Assembly: GCF_003790525.1 (NCBI RefSeq)
Contig: NZ_CP033635.1
Origin: Escherichia coli
GTDB lineage: Bacteria; Pseudomonadota; Gammaproteobacteria; Enterobacterales; Enterobacteriaceae
Length of the DNA stretch: 64,000 bases
Direction: 5' to 3' (one strand)
Shown here: piece by piece, positions 34,800 to 47,319 of the stretch
Position numbering within the stretch: the first letter of the stretch is position 1
Layout: each line of letters starts with the position of its first letter
The notes under the pieces: generated by a model
What the model was told of the DNA's origin: nothing
Databases searched by the model: none
What the model saw: the letters and a program-made list of their open reading frames with translations, nothing else
Program-made: the position numbers and the translations under genes

Positions 34800-34876
34800 G
34801 GCTACGTAGCTCAGTTGGTTAGAGCACATCACTCATAATGATGGGGTCACAGGTTCGAATCCCGTCGTAGCCACCA
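34800..34876 (+). tRNA. metT: tRNA-Met (elongator, CAU)
   Basis: GGCTACGTAGCTCAGTTGGTTAGAGC...CTCATAA...GGTTCGAATCC...CCA; cloverleaf readable. Confidence 0.95.
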
Positions 34877-34884
34877 TCTTTTTT

Positions 34885-34969
34885 GCGGGAGTGGCGAAAT
34901 TGGTAGACGCACCAGATTTAGGTTCTGGCGCCGCAAGGTGTGCGAGTTCAAGTCTCGCCTCCCGCACCA
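34885..34969 (+). tRNA. leuW: tRNA-Leu (UAG), long variable arm
   Basis: GCGGGAGTGGCGAAATTGGTAGACGC...GATTTAGGTTC...CCA, 85 nt. Confidence 0.9.
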
Positions 34970-34992
34970 TTCACCAGAAAGCGTTGTACGGA

Positions 34993-35067
34993 TGGGGTAT
35001 CGCCAAGCGGTAAGGCACCGGTTTTTGATACCGGCATTCCCTGGTTCGAATCCAGGTACCCCAGCCA
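34993..35067 (+). tRNA. glnU: tRNA-Gln (UUG)
   Basis: TGGGGTATCGCCAAGCGGTAAGGCACCGGTTTTTGATACCGG...CCA. Confidence 0.9.
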
Positions 35068-35101
35068 TCTTCTTCGAGTAAGCGGTTCACCGCCCGGTTA
35101 T

Positions 35102-35176
35102 TGGGGTATCGCCAAGCGGTAAGGCACCGGTTTTTGATACCGGCATTCCCTGGTTCGAATCCAGGTACCCCAGCCA
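35102..35176 (+). tRNA. glnW: tRNA-Gln (UUG), second copy
   Basis: Identical to the preceding tRNA-Gln(UUG). Confidence 0.9.
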
Positions 35177-35191
35177 TCGAAGAAACAATCT

Positions 35192-35268
35192 GGCTACGTA
35201 GCTCAGTTGGTTAGAGCACATCACTCATAATGATGGGGTCACAGGTTCGAATCCCGTCGTAGCCACCA
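35192..35268 (+). tRNA. metU: tRNA-Met (elongator, CAU), second copy
   Basis: Identical to metT copy. Confidence 0.95.
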
Positions 35269-35316
35269 AATTCTGAATGTGTCGAATATGTTCGGCAAAT
35301 TCAAAAACCAATTTGT

Positions 35317-35391
35317 TGGGGTATCGCCAAGCGGTAAGGCACCGGATTCTGATTCCGGCATTCCGAGGTTCGAATCCTCGTACCCCAGCCA
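35317..35391 (+). tRNA. glnV: tRNA-Gln (CUG)
   Basis: TGGGGTATCGCCAAGCGGTAAGGCACCGGATTCTGATTCCGG...CCA; anticodon CTG. Confidence 0.9.
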
Positions 35392-35428
35392 ATTTATTCA
35401 AGACACTTACCTTGTAAGTGCACCCAGT

Positions 35429-35503
35429 TGGGGTATCGCCAAGCGGTAAGGCACCGGATTCTGATTCCGGCATTCCGAGGTTCGAATCCTCGTACCCCAG
35501 CCA
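35429..35503 (+). tRNA. glnX: tRNA-Gln (CUG), second copy
   Basis: Identical to glnV copy. Confidence 0.9.
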
Positions 35504-41113: not shown

Positions 41114-42652
41114 ATGGCTTTTGCCTCATTAATTGAACGCCAGCGCATTCGCCTGCTGCTGGCGTTATTATTCGGTGCCTGCGGAACGCTGGCCTTCTCT
41201 CCTTACGACGTCTGGCCTGCGGCGATTATTTCGCTGATGGGGCTTCAGGCGTTGACCTTTAACCGCCGTCCACTCCAGTCTGCCGCTATTGGCTTTTGCT
41301 GGGGATTTGGCCTCTTTGGCAGCGGTATTAACTGGGTCTATGTCAGCATCGCGACCTTTGGCGGAATGCCTGGCCCGGTTAACATCTTCCTGGTGGTACT
41401 GCTGGCGGCGTATTTGTCGCTGTATACCGGACTGTTTGCTGGCGTGCTGTCGCGTCTGTGGCCGAAAACCACCTGGCTGCGCGTGGCGATTGCCGCCCCT
41501 GCTCTCTGGCAAGTGACCGAGTTTCTGCGCGGTTGGGTACTAACAGGCTTCCCGTGGTTACAGTTCGGCTATAGCCAGATTGATGGCCCGTTAAAAGGGC
41601 TGGCACCGCTAATGGGCGTGGAAGCCATTAACTTCCTGCTTATGATGGTTAGCGGCCTGCTGGCACTGGCGTTAGTCAAACGCAACTGGCGTCCGCTGGT
41701 GGTGGCCGTCGTGCTGTTTGCCCTACCCTTCCCGCTGCGTTACATCCAGTGGTTTACCCCGCAACCGGAGAAAACCATTCAGGTTTCGATGGTTCAGGGC
41801 GATATTCCGCAATCGCTGAAATGGGACGGAGACCAGCTACTTAATACGCTGAAGATTTACTACAACGCAACGGCACCGCTGATGGGCAAATCATCGTTGA
41901 TTATCTGGCCGGAGTCGGCGATAACCGATCTGGAAATTAATCAGCAACCGTTCCTCAAAGCACTGGACGGTGAGTTGCGCGATAAAGGTAGCTCGCTGGT
42001 AACCGGGATTGTCGACGCGCGTCTCAATAAGCAGAACCGCTACGATACCTACAACACCATCATCACACTGGGTAAAGGTGCACCGTACAGCTACGAATCA
42101 GCCGATCGCTATAACAAAAACCATCTGGTGCCGTTTGGCGAGTTTGTCCCGCTCGAGTCGATTCTGCGTCCGTTAGCACCGTTCTTTGATCTGCCGATGT
42201 CGTCGTTCAGCCGTGGGCCATATATCCAGCCGCCGCTGTCGGTAAATGGTATTGAGCTTACTGCGGCTATTTGCTACGAGATCATTCTCGGCGAGCAAGT
42301 GCGCGATAACTTCCGCCCGGATACCGACTATCTGCTGACTATCTCCAACGATGCGTGGTTTGGTAAGTCTATTGGTCCATGGCAGCACTTCCAGATGGCG
42401 CGAATGCGTGCGTTGGAGCTGGCGCGCCCACTGTTGCGCAGCACCAACAACGGCATTACGGCGGTGATTGGCCCGCAGGGTGAGATTCAGGCGATGATCC
42501 CGCAGTTCACCCGCGAGGTGTTAACCACTAATGTGACGCCGACCACCGGACTCACACCGTATGCACGTACCGGCAACTGGCCGCTGTGGGTACTGACGGC
42601 ATTGTTTGGTTTTGCCGCTGTGTTGATGAGTCTGCGTCAACGACGTAAATAA
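41114..42652 (+). CDS. lnt: Apolipoprotein N-acyltransferase
   Basis: 512 aa; N-terminal multi-TM region, C-terminal nitrilase-like domain. Confidence 0.95.
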
Positions 42653-42663
42653 TCCCTTCTTAT

Positions 42664-42731
42664 CGTGCCGGAATACATCCCGTATTTCGGCACGCTCGCC
42701 GGATGTGGCATCAGTGCGTTATCCGGATGAC
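42664..42731. repeat. Hairpin plus REP element downstream of lnt
   Basis: GTGCCGGAATACATCCCGTATTTCGGCAC hairpin and CGCCGGATGTGGCATCAGTGCGTTATCCGGATGAC. Confidence 0.55.
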
Positions 42732-42948
42732 AAAATTCCCCTATCCAACTTTGGCACATCTATTGCTTTGTTATACAAGGCAAAGCTTGAACCCGCATCA
42801 GTACAACCCGGTTGCACCACAGCAATCCACCGGTAGCACCAAAAGAGTGCATTTTAAGAATTTTGCTTCGGAATGGTGCGGCGCATCTCGCAAAAACAAA
42901 CAATAAAACATCAATATCTTTACATTTAGCCAAACTAAATGTTACCTA

Positions 42949-43004
42949 ACAAACACAACACTGCACAATAAAGTTGCAGATGATAACAACACAAACACTC
43001 ACAA
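42949..43004 (+). promoter_or_regulatory. C/A-rich elements in gltI 5' UTR (candidate GcvB sRNA target / translational enhancer)
   Basis: AACAAACACAACACTGCACAATAAA and ATAACAACACAAACACTCACAAC upstream of gltI RBS; gltI is a known GcvB target in enterobacteria. Confidence 0.5.
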
Positions 43005-43048
43005 CGGGTATCCATGCGTTCTTAACGCAGAAGATAAAGGAGTTGGAT

Positions 43049-43957
43049 ATGCAATTACGTAAACCTGCCACAGCAATCCTGGCCCTGGCGCTTTCCGCAG
43101 GACTGGCACAGGCAGATGACGCCGCCCCGGCAGCAGGCAGTACGCTGGACAAAATCGCCAAAAACGGTGTGATTGTCGTCGGTCACCGTGAATCTTCAGT
43201 ACCTTTCTCTTATTACGACAATCAGCAAAAAGTGGTGGGTTACTCGCAGGATTACTCCAACGCCATTGTTGAAGCAGTGAAAAAGAAACTCAACAAACCG
43301 GACTTGCAGGTGAAATTGATTCCGATCACCTCACAAAACCGTATTCCGCTGCTGCAAAACGGCACTTTCGATTTTGAATGTGGTTCTACCACCAACAACG
43401 TCGAACGCCAAAAACAGGCGGCTTTCTCCGACACTATTTTCGTGGTCGGTACGCGCCTGCTGACAAAAAAAGGCGGCGATATTAAAGATTTTGCCGATCT
43501 GAAAGACAAAGCCGTCGTAGTCACTTCCGGCACCACCTCTGAAGTTTTGCTCAACAAACTGAATGAAGAGCAAAAAATGAACATGCGCATCATCAGCGCC
43601 AAAGATCACGGTGACTCTTTCCGTACCCTGGAAAGCGGTCGTGCCGTTGCCTTTATGATGGATGATGCTCTGCTGGCTGGTGAACGTGCGAAAGCGAAGA
43701 AACCAGACAACTGGGAAATCGTCGGCAAGCCGCAGTCTCAGGAAGCCTACGGTTGCATGTTGCGTAAAGACGATCCGCAGTTCAAAAAGCTGATGGATGA
43801 CACTATCGCTCAGGTGCAGACCTCCGGTGAAGCGGAAAAATGGTTTGATAAATGGTTCAAAAACCCAATTCCGCCGAAAAACCTGAACATGAATTTCGAA
43901 CTGTCGGACGAAATGAAAGCACTGTTCAAAGAACCGAATGACAAGGCACTGAACTAA
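43049..43957 (+). CDS. gltI: Glutamate/aspartate periplasmic binding protein
   Basis: 302 aa from MQLRKPATAILALALSAGLAQA (signal peptide); ORF-track start 42974 is an extension through the 5' UTR. Confidence 0.9.
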   Translation: MQLRKPATAILALALSAGLAQADDAAPAAGSTLDKIAKNGVIVVGHRESSVPFSYYDNQQKVVGYSQDYSNAIVEAVKKKLNKPDLQVKLIPITSQNRIPLLQNGTFDFECGSTTNNVERQKQAAFSDTIFVVGTRLLTKKGGDIKDFADLKDKAVVVTSGTTSEVLLNKLNEEQKMNMRIISAKDHGDSFRTLESGRAVAFMMDDALLAGERAKAKKPDNWEIVGKPQSQEAYGCMLRKDDPQFKKLMDDTIAQVQTSGEAEKWFDKWFKNPIPPKNLNMNFELSDEMKALFKEPNDKALN

Positions 43958-44113
43958 TTACAAGAACCAGGGGCGGAAATTCCAGCCCTCTCGATTGTTA
44001 CGTAGCACGGACAGACTATACGCCTGATGGTCGTTCCCCATCGGGCCTGAAAACCGCAATACGCTGGGTAACAATCTTCGAGGGTAGCAGTTAACGCTGC
44101 TACCCTCTTTTTT
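43958..44113 (+). ncRNA. sroC: SroC sRNA region (gltI-gltJ intergenic, processed from gltIJKL mRNA)
   Basis: 169-bp intergenic region ending in strong hairpin GAGGGTAGCAG-ttaac-GCTGCTACCCTC plus TTTTTT at 44081..44113; 5' boundary not determinable from sequence. Confidence 0.5.
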
Positions 44114-44126
44114 CTGGAGTAGATTT

Positions 44127-44867
44127 ATGTCTATAGACTGGAACTGGGGTATTTTTTTACAACAAGCCCCGTTCGGCAACACCACCTATCTTGGTTGGAT
44201 CTGGAGTGGTTTTCAGGTGACGATCGCTTTGTCGATCTGCGCCTGGATTATCGCTTTCCTCGTCGGTTCATTTTTCGGCATTTTACGTACCGTTCCAAAC
44301 CGTTTTCTCTCCGGTCTGGGTACGTTGTATGTCGAACTGTTCCGCAACGTGCCGTTGATTGTGCAATTCTTTACCTGGTATCTGGTGATCCCGGAGCTGT
44401 TGCCGGAGAAAATCGGCATGTGGTTTAAGGCCGAGCTGGATCCCAATATTCAGTTTTTCCTTTCATCCATGCTCTGCCTGGGGCTGTTTACCGCCGCCCG
44501 TGTTTGCGAACAGGTACGCGCCGCGATTCAGTCGTTGCCGCGTGGGCAAAAGAATGCCGCGCTGGCAATGGGTCTGACGCTACCGCAGGCTTACCGCTAT
44601 GTACTGCTGCCTAATGCTTATCGCGTTATCGTCCCGCCGATGACCTCCGAGATGATGAACCTGGTGAAAAACTCCGCCATCGCCTCGACTATCGGTCTGG
44701 TAGATATGGCGGCGCAGGCGGGTAAATTGCTCGATTACTCAGCTCATGCCTGGGAGTCGTTTACCGCCATTACGCTTGCGTATGTGTTGATTAACGCGGT
44801 TATCATGCTGGTAATGACGCTGGTTGAACGTAAAGTTCGCCTGCCCGGCAACATGGGGGGCAAATAA
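44127..44867 (+). CDS. gltJ: Glutamate/aspartate ABC transporter permease
   Basis: 246 aa polytopic permease. Confidence 0.9.
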
Positions 44868-45541
44868 TGTACGAGTTTGACTGGAGTTCCATAGTTCCTT
44901 CCCTGCCATATCTGCTCGACGGGCTGGTGATCACCCTGAAAATCACCGTCACGGCAGTCGTGATTGGTATTTTGTGGGGCACCATGCTGGCGGTGATGCG
45001 CTTGTCCAGCTTTGCGCCCGTAGCGTGGTTTGCCAAAGCCTACGTTAACGTATTCCGCTCGATTCCTTTAGTTATGGTTTTGCTGTGGTTTTACCTGATT
45101 GTGCCGGGTTTTCTGCAAAACGTGCTGGGATTATCGCCAAAAAATGATATCCGTTTAATCTCGGCGATGGTGGCGTTTTCGATGTTTGAAGCGGCCTACT
45201 ATTCAGAGATTATCCGTGCCGGTATTCAAAGTATTTCCCGTGGTCAGTCGAGCGCCGCGCTGGCGTTGGGGATGAATCACTGGCAGTCGATGAAACTGAT
45301 TATTCTGCCGCAGGCGTTCCGCGCGATGGTGCCGCTGCTGCTCACTCAGGGCATCGTACTGTTCCAGGATACCTCACTGGTGTATGTGTTATCTCTGGCC
45401 GATTTCTTCCGTACCGCCTCAACCATTGGTGAGCGTGATGGTACGCAGGTCGAGATGATCCTGTTTGCCGGGTTTGTTTATTTCGTTATTAGCCTTAGCG
45501 CATCGTTGTTGGTCAGCTACTTGAAAAGAAGGACAGCATAA
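44867..45541 (+). CDS. gltK: Glutamate/aspartate ABC transporter permease
   Basis: 224 aa; start overlaps gltJ stop. Confidence 0.9.
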
Positions 45542-46266
45542 TGATTACCCTGAAAAATGTTTCAAAATGGTATGGTCACTTTCAGGTGCTGACCGACTGC
45601 TCAACCGAAGTGAAAAAAGGCGAAGTGGTGGTGGTTTGCGGCCCGTCTGGTTCCGGCAAATCAACGCTGATTAAAACCGTCAACGGCCTCGAACCGGTGC
45701 AGCAAGGTGAAATCACCGTCGATGGCATCGTGGTTAATGATAAGAAAACCGATCTGGCAAAGCTGCGTTCCCGCGTCGGGATGGTGTTTCAGCATTTCGA
45801 GCTGTTCCCCCATCTGTCGATTATCGAAAACCTGACCCTGGCGCAGGTGAAAGTGCTTAAACGCAATAAAGCGCCGGCTCGTGAAAAAGCATTGAAATTG
45901 CTGGAGCGCGTCGGGCTTTCCGCACATGCCAATAAGTTTCCGGCGCAGCTTTCCGGCGGCCAGCAGCAGCGAGTGGCGATCGCTCGCGCATTGTGCATGG
46001 ATCCTATTGCCATGCTGTTCGACGAACCAACGTCGGCGCTGGATCCGGAGATGATCAACGAAGTGCTGGACGTGATGGTCGAACTGGCGAACGAAGGAAT
46101 GACGATGATGGTGGTGACCCACGAAATGGGCTTTGCCCGTAAAGTGGCGAATCGGGTGATCTTTATGGACGAGGGTAAAATTGTCGAAGACTCGCCGAAA
46201 GACGCTTTCTTCGATGATCCGAAATCGGACCGCGCAAAAGACTTCCTCGCGAAAATCCTGCATTAA
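45541..46266 (+). CDS. gltL: Glutamate/aspartate ABC transporter ATP-binding protein
   Basis: 241 aa; Walker [10 protein letters not shown], signature LSGGQQQR, Walker [12 protein letters not shown]. Confidence 0.95.
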
Positions 46267-46383
46267 TCACTCTGGCGCGCATACCCAAGTGCGCGCCATC
46301 TCACGCTTTATCGTTTCGCTCCTCGTATCTGTTACATCCTGGCGGTACCCTTGTCGCAAAGAAGCACACAACAAGGAGCAACA

Positions 46384-47319
46384 ATGGCACTGCCAATTCT
46401 GTTAGATTGCGACCCAGGTCATGACGACGCTATCGCAATCGTTCTCGCCCTCGCCTCACCAGAGCTTGATGTCAAAGCAATTACGTCTTCCGCCGGAAAC
46501 CAGACACCAGAAAAAACCTTACGCAATGTTCTGTGTATGCTGACCTTGCTTAATCGCACCGATATTCCGGTAGCAAGCGGTGCGGTAAAACCATTAATGC
46601 GTGATTTGATTATCGCGGACAATGTGCACGGCGAAAGCGGTCTCGACGGCCCGGCATTACCGGAACCGACGTTCGCACCGCAAAACTGTACGGCGGTGGA
46701 GCTGATGGCGAAAACGCTGTGTGAAAGTGAGGAACCTGTCACCATTGTTTCTACCGGACCGCAAACTAACGTTGCCTTGCTGCTCAATAGCCACCCGGAA
46801 CTGCATAGCAAAATTGCCCGTATCGTGATTATGGGCGGCGCAATGGGGCTTGGTAACTGGACGCCTGCGGCTGAATTTAATATTTACGTTGACCCGGAAG
46901 CGGCAGAAATTGTCTTCCAGTCAGGGATCCCGGTGGTGATGGCCGGTCTGGATGTTACTCACAAAGCACAAATTCACGTTGAGGACACCGAGCGTTTCCG
47001 CGCCATTGGCAACCCTGTTTCAACCATTGTTGCCGAACTGCTGGATTTCTTCCTCGAATATCATAAAGACGAAAAATGGGGCTTTGTCGGCGCACCGCTG
47101 CATGACCCATGCACCATCGCCTGGCTGTTAAAACCGGAGTTGTTTACCACTGTTGAGCGCTGGGTTGGCGTGGAAACACAAGGGAAATATACCCAAGGTA
47201 TGACGGTTGTTGATTATTATTATCTGACTGGCAATAAACCGAATGCCACTGTAATGGTCGATGTTGATCGTCAGGGCTTTGTTGATTTACTGGCCGATCG
47301 TCTGAAATTTTACGCTTAA
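46384..47319 (+). CDS. rihA: Pyrimidine-specific ribonucleoside hydrolase RihA
   Basis: 311 aa from [16 protein letters not shown] (IU-nucleoside hydrolase DxDxxxDD motif). Confidence 0.9.

Follow-up and report, generated by a model that had tools for sequence, protein, structure and literature searches.

The window analysed here is a stretch of 64,000 nucleotides of Escherichia coli DNA (contig NZ_CP033635.1, RefSeq assembly GCF_003790525.1; one strand, 5' to 3'), and all positions are counted from its first letter. The genes at the locus were located from their open reading frames and from the RefSeq annotation of identical DNA, as follows:

43049-43957, plus strand: gltI coding sequence, whose transcript is the parent mRNA of SroC
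44116-44867, plus strand: gltJ ribosome-binding site (GGAG, 44116-44119) and coding sequence, with the ATG at 44127
44127-44867, 44867-45541 and 45541-46266, plus strand: coding sequences of gltJ, gltK and gltL

The gltI product is a periplasmic glutamate/aspartate binding protein of 302 amino acids: the ATG at 43049 precedes a signal peptide (MQLRKPATAILALALSAGLAQA) and the reading frame closes with a TAA stop codon at 43955-43957. The layout described by the original prediction, a spacer of 169 bp between gltI and gltJ with gltJKL following on the same strand, was recovered exactly: the spacer occupies 43958-44126, between the TAA that ends at 43957 and the ATG at 44127, and all three downstream frames are on the plus strand. 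In published work the operon has one promoter and a leaky terminator, and gltJ is expressed only via terminator read-through (PMC4474525). A consensus promoter scan of 42600-46500 detected no promoter on the plus strand, but as even the gltI promoter was missed, this result carries no information.

The lnt-gltI intergenic region measures 396 bp (42653-43048) in the strain of the window, which is without the IS5 element (IS5D, insH3) that lies upstream of gltI in K-12 MG1655 and in a K-12-like strain. The 281-bp segment of the window strain that was tested matches strain 2016C-3878 at 100%. Elsewhere in the window, seven tRNA genes are carried on the plus strand at 34800-35503 (Met(CAT), Leu(TAG), two Gln(TTG), Met(CAT) and two Gln(CTG)); this cluster is the known E. 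coli metT-leuW-glnUW-metU-glnVX operon.

SroC at the gltI-gltJ junction

When the whole window was scanned with Rfam, the model RF00369 (sroC) matched 43953-44115 on the plus strand with 174.8 bits (gathering score 45, E = 7e-37), over its full length (model positions 1-163 of 163). The copy is identical at 163/163 bases to the curated ncRNA sroC (b4763) of the K-12 MG1655 record, which is placed between gltI and gltJ with a five-base overlap with gltI. The reading of this spacer as the SroC locus is thus borne out by score, identity and position. The limits first proposed for the element, 43958-44113, pointed to the right locus, but the RNA itself runs from 43953, five bases inside gltI, to about 44115: it starts 2 nt ahead of the gltI stop codon and finishes within the terminator U-tail. 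The elements of the RNA are the following:

43953-44115, plus strand: SroC sRNA, 163 nt (Rfam RF00369; identity to b4763; folding z = -6.5)
43970-43989, plus strand: stem-loop 1, sRNA nt 18-37, in both the MFE and the centroid fold
43993-44076, plus strand: stem-loop 2 domain, sRNA nt 41-124, a long irregular helix bearing both GcvB-pairing sites
44009-44016, plus strand: GcvB-pairing site GGACAGAC, sRNA nt 57-64, pairing with GcvB nt 156-163
44031-44037, plus strand: GcvB-pairing site UCGUUCC, sRNA nt 79-85, pairing with GcvB nt 13-19 (stem-loop 1 of GcvB)
44080-44107, plus strand: intrinsic terminator hairpin, sRNA nt 128-155, with a stem of 11-12 bp and a loop of 4-6 nt
44108-44113, plus strand: T6 run forming the terminator U-tail, directly 3' of the stem (T6-T8 across the alignment)

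We put the probability that 43953-44115 (plus strand) is the gene of SroC, a small RNA that depends on Hfq and is nested within the gltIJKL operon, at about 96%, and nothing in the analysis contradicts this reading. The identity, coordinates, fold and covariation of the RNA are established here, as are the presence and conservation of its pairing sites and terminator. SroC is a classic example of regulation by a piece of an mRNA. As a known element, the same as the K-12 reference copy, it is ordinary; its occurrence shows no more than that the window is normal E. coli chromosome and that such a locus is recognisable from raw sequence. The segment 43900-44180 was found in 5421/5426 complete E. 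coli genomes, in 5249 of which the 163-nt SroC is at least 99% identical. Two plasmid copies of the gltI-gltJ segment were seen, a few chromosomes carry it twice and 5/5426 genomes are without it. In the records inspected, sroC is listed only in the curated K-12 record and is missing from the RefSeq automatic annotation of the other E. coli strains; the main text of an E. coli 3'-end mapping paper mentions neither sroC nor gltI.

The 163-nt segment folds with -66.3 kcal/mol, compared with -40.5 +/- 4.0 kcal/mol for shuffled sequences (z = -6.5; 0/200 shuffles as stable), into three elements: stem-loop 1, the long stem-loop 2 domain and the terminator. For comparative analysis, gltI-gltJ loci were fetched from Enterobacterales with a degenerate DNA pattern for the gltJ N-terminal peptide IDWNWGIF, independently of the spacer. 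The 120 loci yielded 108 complete spacers of 85-374 nt from species other than E. coli, and covariation was tested on a spacer alignment of 39 species. When the E. coli fold was mapped onto this alignment, 88% of the cells were paired (40-51% in register-slide controls), and compensatory changes were found in 20/48 pairs (12.9 in column shuffles; 0/500 shuffles reached 20). The helix of stem-loop 1 had 86% of its cells paired and three pairs with compensatory change; in stem-loop 2, such changes affected 5/10 basal, 3/3 middle and 7/9 apical pairs.

The terminator arms, GAGGGTAGCAG (44080-44090) and CTGCTACCCTC (44097-44107), form 11 perfect pairs and are followed by the T6 run, just as the original prediction had it. 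An added T-G pair extends the stem to 12 bp, reduces the loop to 4 nt and gives a helix containing 7 G-C pairs. Folded alone, the hairpin has an energy of -21.3 kcal/mol, and a terminator scan of 42600-46500 ranked 44080-44113 as the strongest terminator-like site by far. The description of the terminator as strong holds for its sequence, but the literature calls the SroC terminator leaky (PMC4474525).

In the alignment, the Escherichia terminator carries an extra AGTTAAC (44089-44095) that lengthens the stem to 11-12 bp, and most other Enterobacteriaceae have a stem of 7-9 bp with a 3-nt loop. The perfect 11-bp stem is thus, to judge from the alignment, a genus-specific elaboration. The U-tail at 44108-44113 is the expected contact of the Hfq proximal face, as in Hfq-dependent sRNAs, and by analogy with the literature the T6 run would have this role in SroC.

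Pairing with GcvB and the proposed circuit

With the GcvB sequence of the K-12 record (confirmed as Rfam GcvB), the interval 43958-44080 was found to hold two complementary segments, 44009-44016 and 44031-44037. The former, GGACAGAC, makes 8 consecutive Watson-Crick pairs with the R3 region of GcvB, in its stem-loop 4; it is partly paired in the SroC ensemble, invariant in 39/39 aligned species and present in 48/48 Enterobacteriaceae, 22/23 Erwiniaceae and 6/8 Pectobacteriaceae spacers. The latter, UCGUUCC, is the open 7-nt loop of an apical hairpin of stem-loop 2 (44022-44046); it makes 7 consecutive pairs with GcvB and is unpaired with a probability of 0.98-1.0 at every position of the ensemble. 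This loop is likewise invariant in the 39-species alignment, and CGTTCC occurs in 103/108 spacers, 10/10 Morganellaceae among them. The two sites are 14 nt apart, which matches the published spacing (PMC4474525), and they persist in genera whose overall similarity escapes nhmmer.

Chance complementarity between the two RNAs is high: after shuffling, 31% of the SroC sequences can still form 8 or more consecutive pairs with GcvB, and two stretches of at least 7 occur in 44%. Because equally long runs are so frequent in shuffled SroC, the complementarity statistics are no evidence by themselves, and the pairing claim rests instead on position, conservation and published mutants. In Salmonella, SroC G61, G65 and G84 and GcvB G14, G18 and G156 were protected from RNase T1 in probing experiments, and compensatory mutation proved the pairs SroC C63 - GcvB G160 and SroC C87 - GcvB G14 (PMC4474525). 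With a constant offset of +3, which we infer for the numbering of Salmonella relative to E. coli (no Salmonella locus was among those fetched), the E. coli sites contain every one of these mapped nucleotides: the C63 - G160 pair corresponds to the GGACAGAC site and the C87 - G14 pair to UCGUUCC. Later work also puts the SroC pairing sites in stem-loop 1 and R3 of GcvB (PMC9299463).

Dependence on RNase E and Hfq, leaky termination, degradation of GcvB and the physiology are taken from published experiments with Salmonella and E. coli K-12, and would apply to the present copy by analogy. In Salmonella, a single gltI promoter gives rise to the full operon mRNA and to a gltI-only mRNA that ends at the leaky Rho-independent terminator; RNase E trims the latter to the stable SroC, in a reaction that depends on a 5' monophosphate and on Hfq (PMC4474525). 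GcvB has a half-life of 1.7 min in the presence of SroC but of more than 15 min in its absence, SroC is not consumed, and GcvB targets such as oppA and dppA are de-repressed through SroC (PMC4474525). The same study states that the E. coli SroC homologues are functional (PMC4474525), and in E. coli RIL-seq data about 70% of the stationary-phase GcvB chimeras were formed with SroC (PMC5145812). MgrR and the fliE and flhBAE mRNAs are other reported SroC partners (reviewed in PMC9438474).

These reports modify the earlier picture of a GcvB sponge made by processing of the gltIJKL transcript. Processing by RNase E does account for the 5' end, but the 3' end is made by the leaky terminator; and pairing with GcvB is upheld by the two published sites, but the outcome is degradation by RNase E and not mere sequestration (PMC4474525).

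GcvB also targets the gltI mRNA, by way of a CA-rich stretch of the 5' UTR (PMC4474525). The corresponding element was located as follows:

42973-43006, plus strand: C/A-rich GcvB R1 target in the gltI 5' UTR, pairing with the GcvB R1 seed

Its duplex with GcvB nt 63-92 has an energy of -33.9 kcal/mol, a value reached by 0/300 shuffles.

On this basis the locus would work as follows. Transcription would begin at the single gltI promoter; part of it would stop at the intrinsic terminator (44080-44113) to give a gltI-only mRNA, and the rest would continue into gltJKL. RNase E would degrade the gltI mRNA from its 5' side and halt, with Hfq, at about 43953, leaving a stable, tightly folded RNA of 163 nt with a 5' monophosphate. 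Two short exposed segments of this RNA would pair with two distant parts of GcvB (GGACAGAC with nt 156-163 and UCGUUCC with nt 13-19), whereupon RNase E would destroy GcvB and SroC would survive. The loss of GcvB would free many amino-acid transport and metabolism mRNAs from repression. Because the gltI 5' UTR (42973-43006) is itself a GcvB target, gltI would be among the freed mRNAs and the circuit would reinforce its own parent message.

Compared with known systems, the closest relative is SroC itself (RF00369; b4763; Salmonella SroC of Miyakoshi, Chao & Vogel 2015): position, three-hairpin fold, terminator and the 14-nt distance between sites are the same, as is the 163-nt sequence in K-12. 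The RNA does not differ from that of K-12, and only the IS5 upstream of gltI is absent from the window strain. The chbBC intergenic spacer, a sponge of ChiX, is similar in being an RNA within a polycistronic operon for sugar or amino-acid uptake that binds an Hfq-dependent sRNA by base pairing and reduces its amount, and both link the expression of one mRNA to that of others. The chbBC spacer works inside the mRNA and destabilises ChiX via its terminator and PNPase, whereas SroC is a separate stable RNA that induces RNase E cleavage of GcvB (PMC4474525).

CpxQ, SdhX, NarS, OppZ and MalH are, like SroC, promoterless and Hfq-bound, cut by RNase E from a parent mRNA whose intrinsic terminator they keep (PMC9438474). 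They lie at the true 3' end of a transcription unit and mostly repress mRNAs; unlike these 3'-UTR sRNAs, SroC is found in mid-operon at a leaky terminator and has another sRNA as its main target. The prophage-encoded AgvB of enterohaemorrhagic E. coli also antagonises GcvB by base pairing on Hfq. AgvB mimics R1-seed mRNA targets and sequesters GcvB without destabilising it, whereas SroC binds stem-loop 1 and R3 and brings about the decay of GcvB.

Invariant blocks and alternative readings

Three basal blocks do not vary among the 39 species: CCCUCUCGAUUG (sRNA nt 34-45), CAAUCUUCGAGGGUAGC (sRNA nt 120-136) and GCUACCC (sRNA nt 147-153). In the window, the invariant stretches are 43986-43997 and 44072-44088, plus the terminator at 44080-44107. 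The terminator core GGGUAGC/GCUACCC and its linker CAAUCUUCGAG are invariant in sequence, unlike the other SroC stems, which covary in the same alignment. Since a terminator hairpin normally needs only pairing, and this one is fixed in sequence while other stems change, the blocks suggest that something besides hairpin formation constrains them. The authors of PMC4474525 likewise noted conserved positions away from the GcvB contacts and suggested a regulator of termination.

A regulated terminator or antiterminator, acting in addition to the SroC function or as the main one, would provide such a constraint. In this reading the base of stem-loop 2 captures the 5' arm of the terminator, and a signal or factor sets the balance between stop, which yields gltI-only mRNA and SroC, and read-through, which yields GltJKL, so that CCCUCUCGAUUG, CAAUCUUCGAGGGUAGC and GCUACCC would form a conditional terminator switch or a platform for factor binding. 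The fixity of core, linker and CCCUCUCGAUUG, set beside the covariation of 7/9 apical pairs in stem-loop 2, speaks for it, as does the retention of core and T-run in 78/79 spacers from three families (Enterobacteriaceae, Erwiniaceae and Pectobacteriaceae). When the nascent RNA (nt 1-143) is folded, the best structure pairs nt 127-131 with nt 37-41, as does the Rfam consensus structure. This pairing would occupy part of the 5' arm of the terminator before the 3' arm is made and, in the folding model, could be the basis of the leakiness. The authors of PMC4474525 themselves raise regulated termination of SroC.

Several points weigh against such a switch. An alternative helix joining the 3' side of stem-loop 1 to the terminator 5' arm was examined in two registers. 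Pairing is possible nearly everywhere in both, but so few changes occur in the columns involved that covariation cannot support the reading. At equilibrium, the fold with the terminator is the more stable one by about 9-10 kcal/mol (-66.3 kcal/mol, as opposed to -56 to -57 kcal/mol). No ligand or factor is known for a switch at the SroC terminator, and the invariance has other possible causes: contacts with Hfq or RNase E, or the gltJ translation start 13 nt downstream. We consider the switch or platform improbable on balance. If it existed, it would tune the release of SroC and the GltI:GltJKL ratio to a signal, and the leakiness would be regulated and not passive; an answer on this leaky, sequence-fixed terminator would reveal how the yield of a sponge RNA is controlled in the cell.

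The hairpin could also be only an operon-internal attenuator or 3' stabiliser, giving an excess of GltI over the membrane components and leaving the RNA as an inert by-product. Substrate-binding proteins are indeed made in excess in ABC-transporter operons, where a terminator after the first gene achieves this excess (PMC4474525), and SroC was originally taken for a breakdown fragment (PMC4474525, PMC9438474). Yet deletion of sroC alone stabilises GcvB (half-life from 1.7 min to more than 15 min; PMC4474525), and point mutants lose the effect on GcvB and compensatory mutants restore it (PMC4474525), which refutes the attenuator as the sole explanation. Furthermore, both pairing sites are invariant and lie in stem-loop 2, well upstream of the terminator hairpin, where a mere attenuator would not need them. 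As a complete account of the locus this reading is very unlikely; the stoichiometry role of the hairpin is real, and is additional to the SroC function, not an alternative to it.

That the conserved spacer encodes a small protein and not an RNA, for example in the 75-codon minus-strand frame 44185-43958 that crosses the spacer in the list of open reading frames, has almost no probability and this candidate was rejected: the list is purely mechanical, the frame is unannotated in every record inspected, and the spacer varies by indels of many lengths (85 to 374 nt) and by paired compensatory changes, a pattern of RNA and not of a reading frame.

Pairing with MgrR was considered as a cause of the invariant terminator but does not explain it: a duplex check was uninformative, as its best run falls on the terminator of MgrR itself and seems to have no significance. 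An internal hairpin of GcvB (nt 114-128, at 410-424 of locus L002; GGUAGC-AAA-GCUACC followed by U6) has a stem whose sequence is also that of the SroC terminator (44083-44104), so that each of its arms is complementary to that terminator; the chance of this coincidence was estimated at several per cent.

Distribution in the Enterobacterales

The two pairing motifs and the terminator core (GGGTAGC...GCTACCC) with its T-run were counted in the spacers of each family:

Enterobacteriaceae, 48 spacers: both pairing motifs in 48; core and T-run in 47
Erwiniaceae, 23 spacers: both pairing motifs in 22; core and T-run in 23
Pectobacteriaceae, 8 spacers: both pairing motifs in 6; core and T-run in 8
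Yersiniaceae, 13 spacers: both pairing motifs in 4 (Serratia only); core and T-run in 0
Morganellaceae, 10 spacers: both pairing motifs in 0 (CGTTCC alone in 10/10); core and T-run in 0
Hafniaceae, 4 spacers: both pairing motifs in 0; core and T-run in 0

A covariance model was built from the 39-species alignment and used on the fetched loci. Strong full-length homologues were obtained in Pantoea, Erwinia, Mixta, Dickeya, Pectobacterium, Brenneria and Yersinia, and weak ones in Serratia and Rahnella; in Providencia, Photorhabdus and Moellerella the matches were weak or partial, in several cases covering just the apical hairpin. Pantoea, most Erwinia, Serratia and Dickeya, all overlooked by nhmmer when the query was the E. 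coli sequence alone, were recovered by the covariance model. A second match of the model in Brenneria (L016:6188-6296, 31 bits) was discarded as spurious: it is a terminator that follows miaB, and the core is deleted.

Yersinia, Rahnella, Serratia, Photorhabdus, Providencia, Moellerella and Hafnia have lost the other parts of SroC but keep the apical hairpin of stem-loop 2, whose loop is (U/C)CGUUCC (spacers L084, L057, L058, L017, L120, L052, L072 and L028). A U-run comes directly after this hairpin in Yersinia, Rahnella, Photorhabdus and Moellerella, and in several of these genera hairpin and U-run probably serve as a terminator. The arrangement in Yersinia agrees with the truncated, inactive SroC homologue described in Y. 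pestis (PMC4474525). The apical hairpin looks like the ancestral core of the SroC element.

Insertions of more than 100 nt, before or inside SroC, were observed in several species with spacers of 280-350 nt (L118, L070, L096, L021, L066, L069, L062, L071, L080, L087 and L016); they may be small mobile or repeat elements. In a Brenneria spacer, 175 nt are inserted beside the loop of stem-loop 2.
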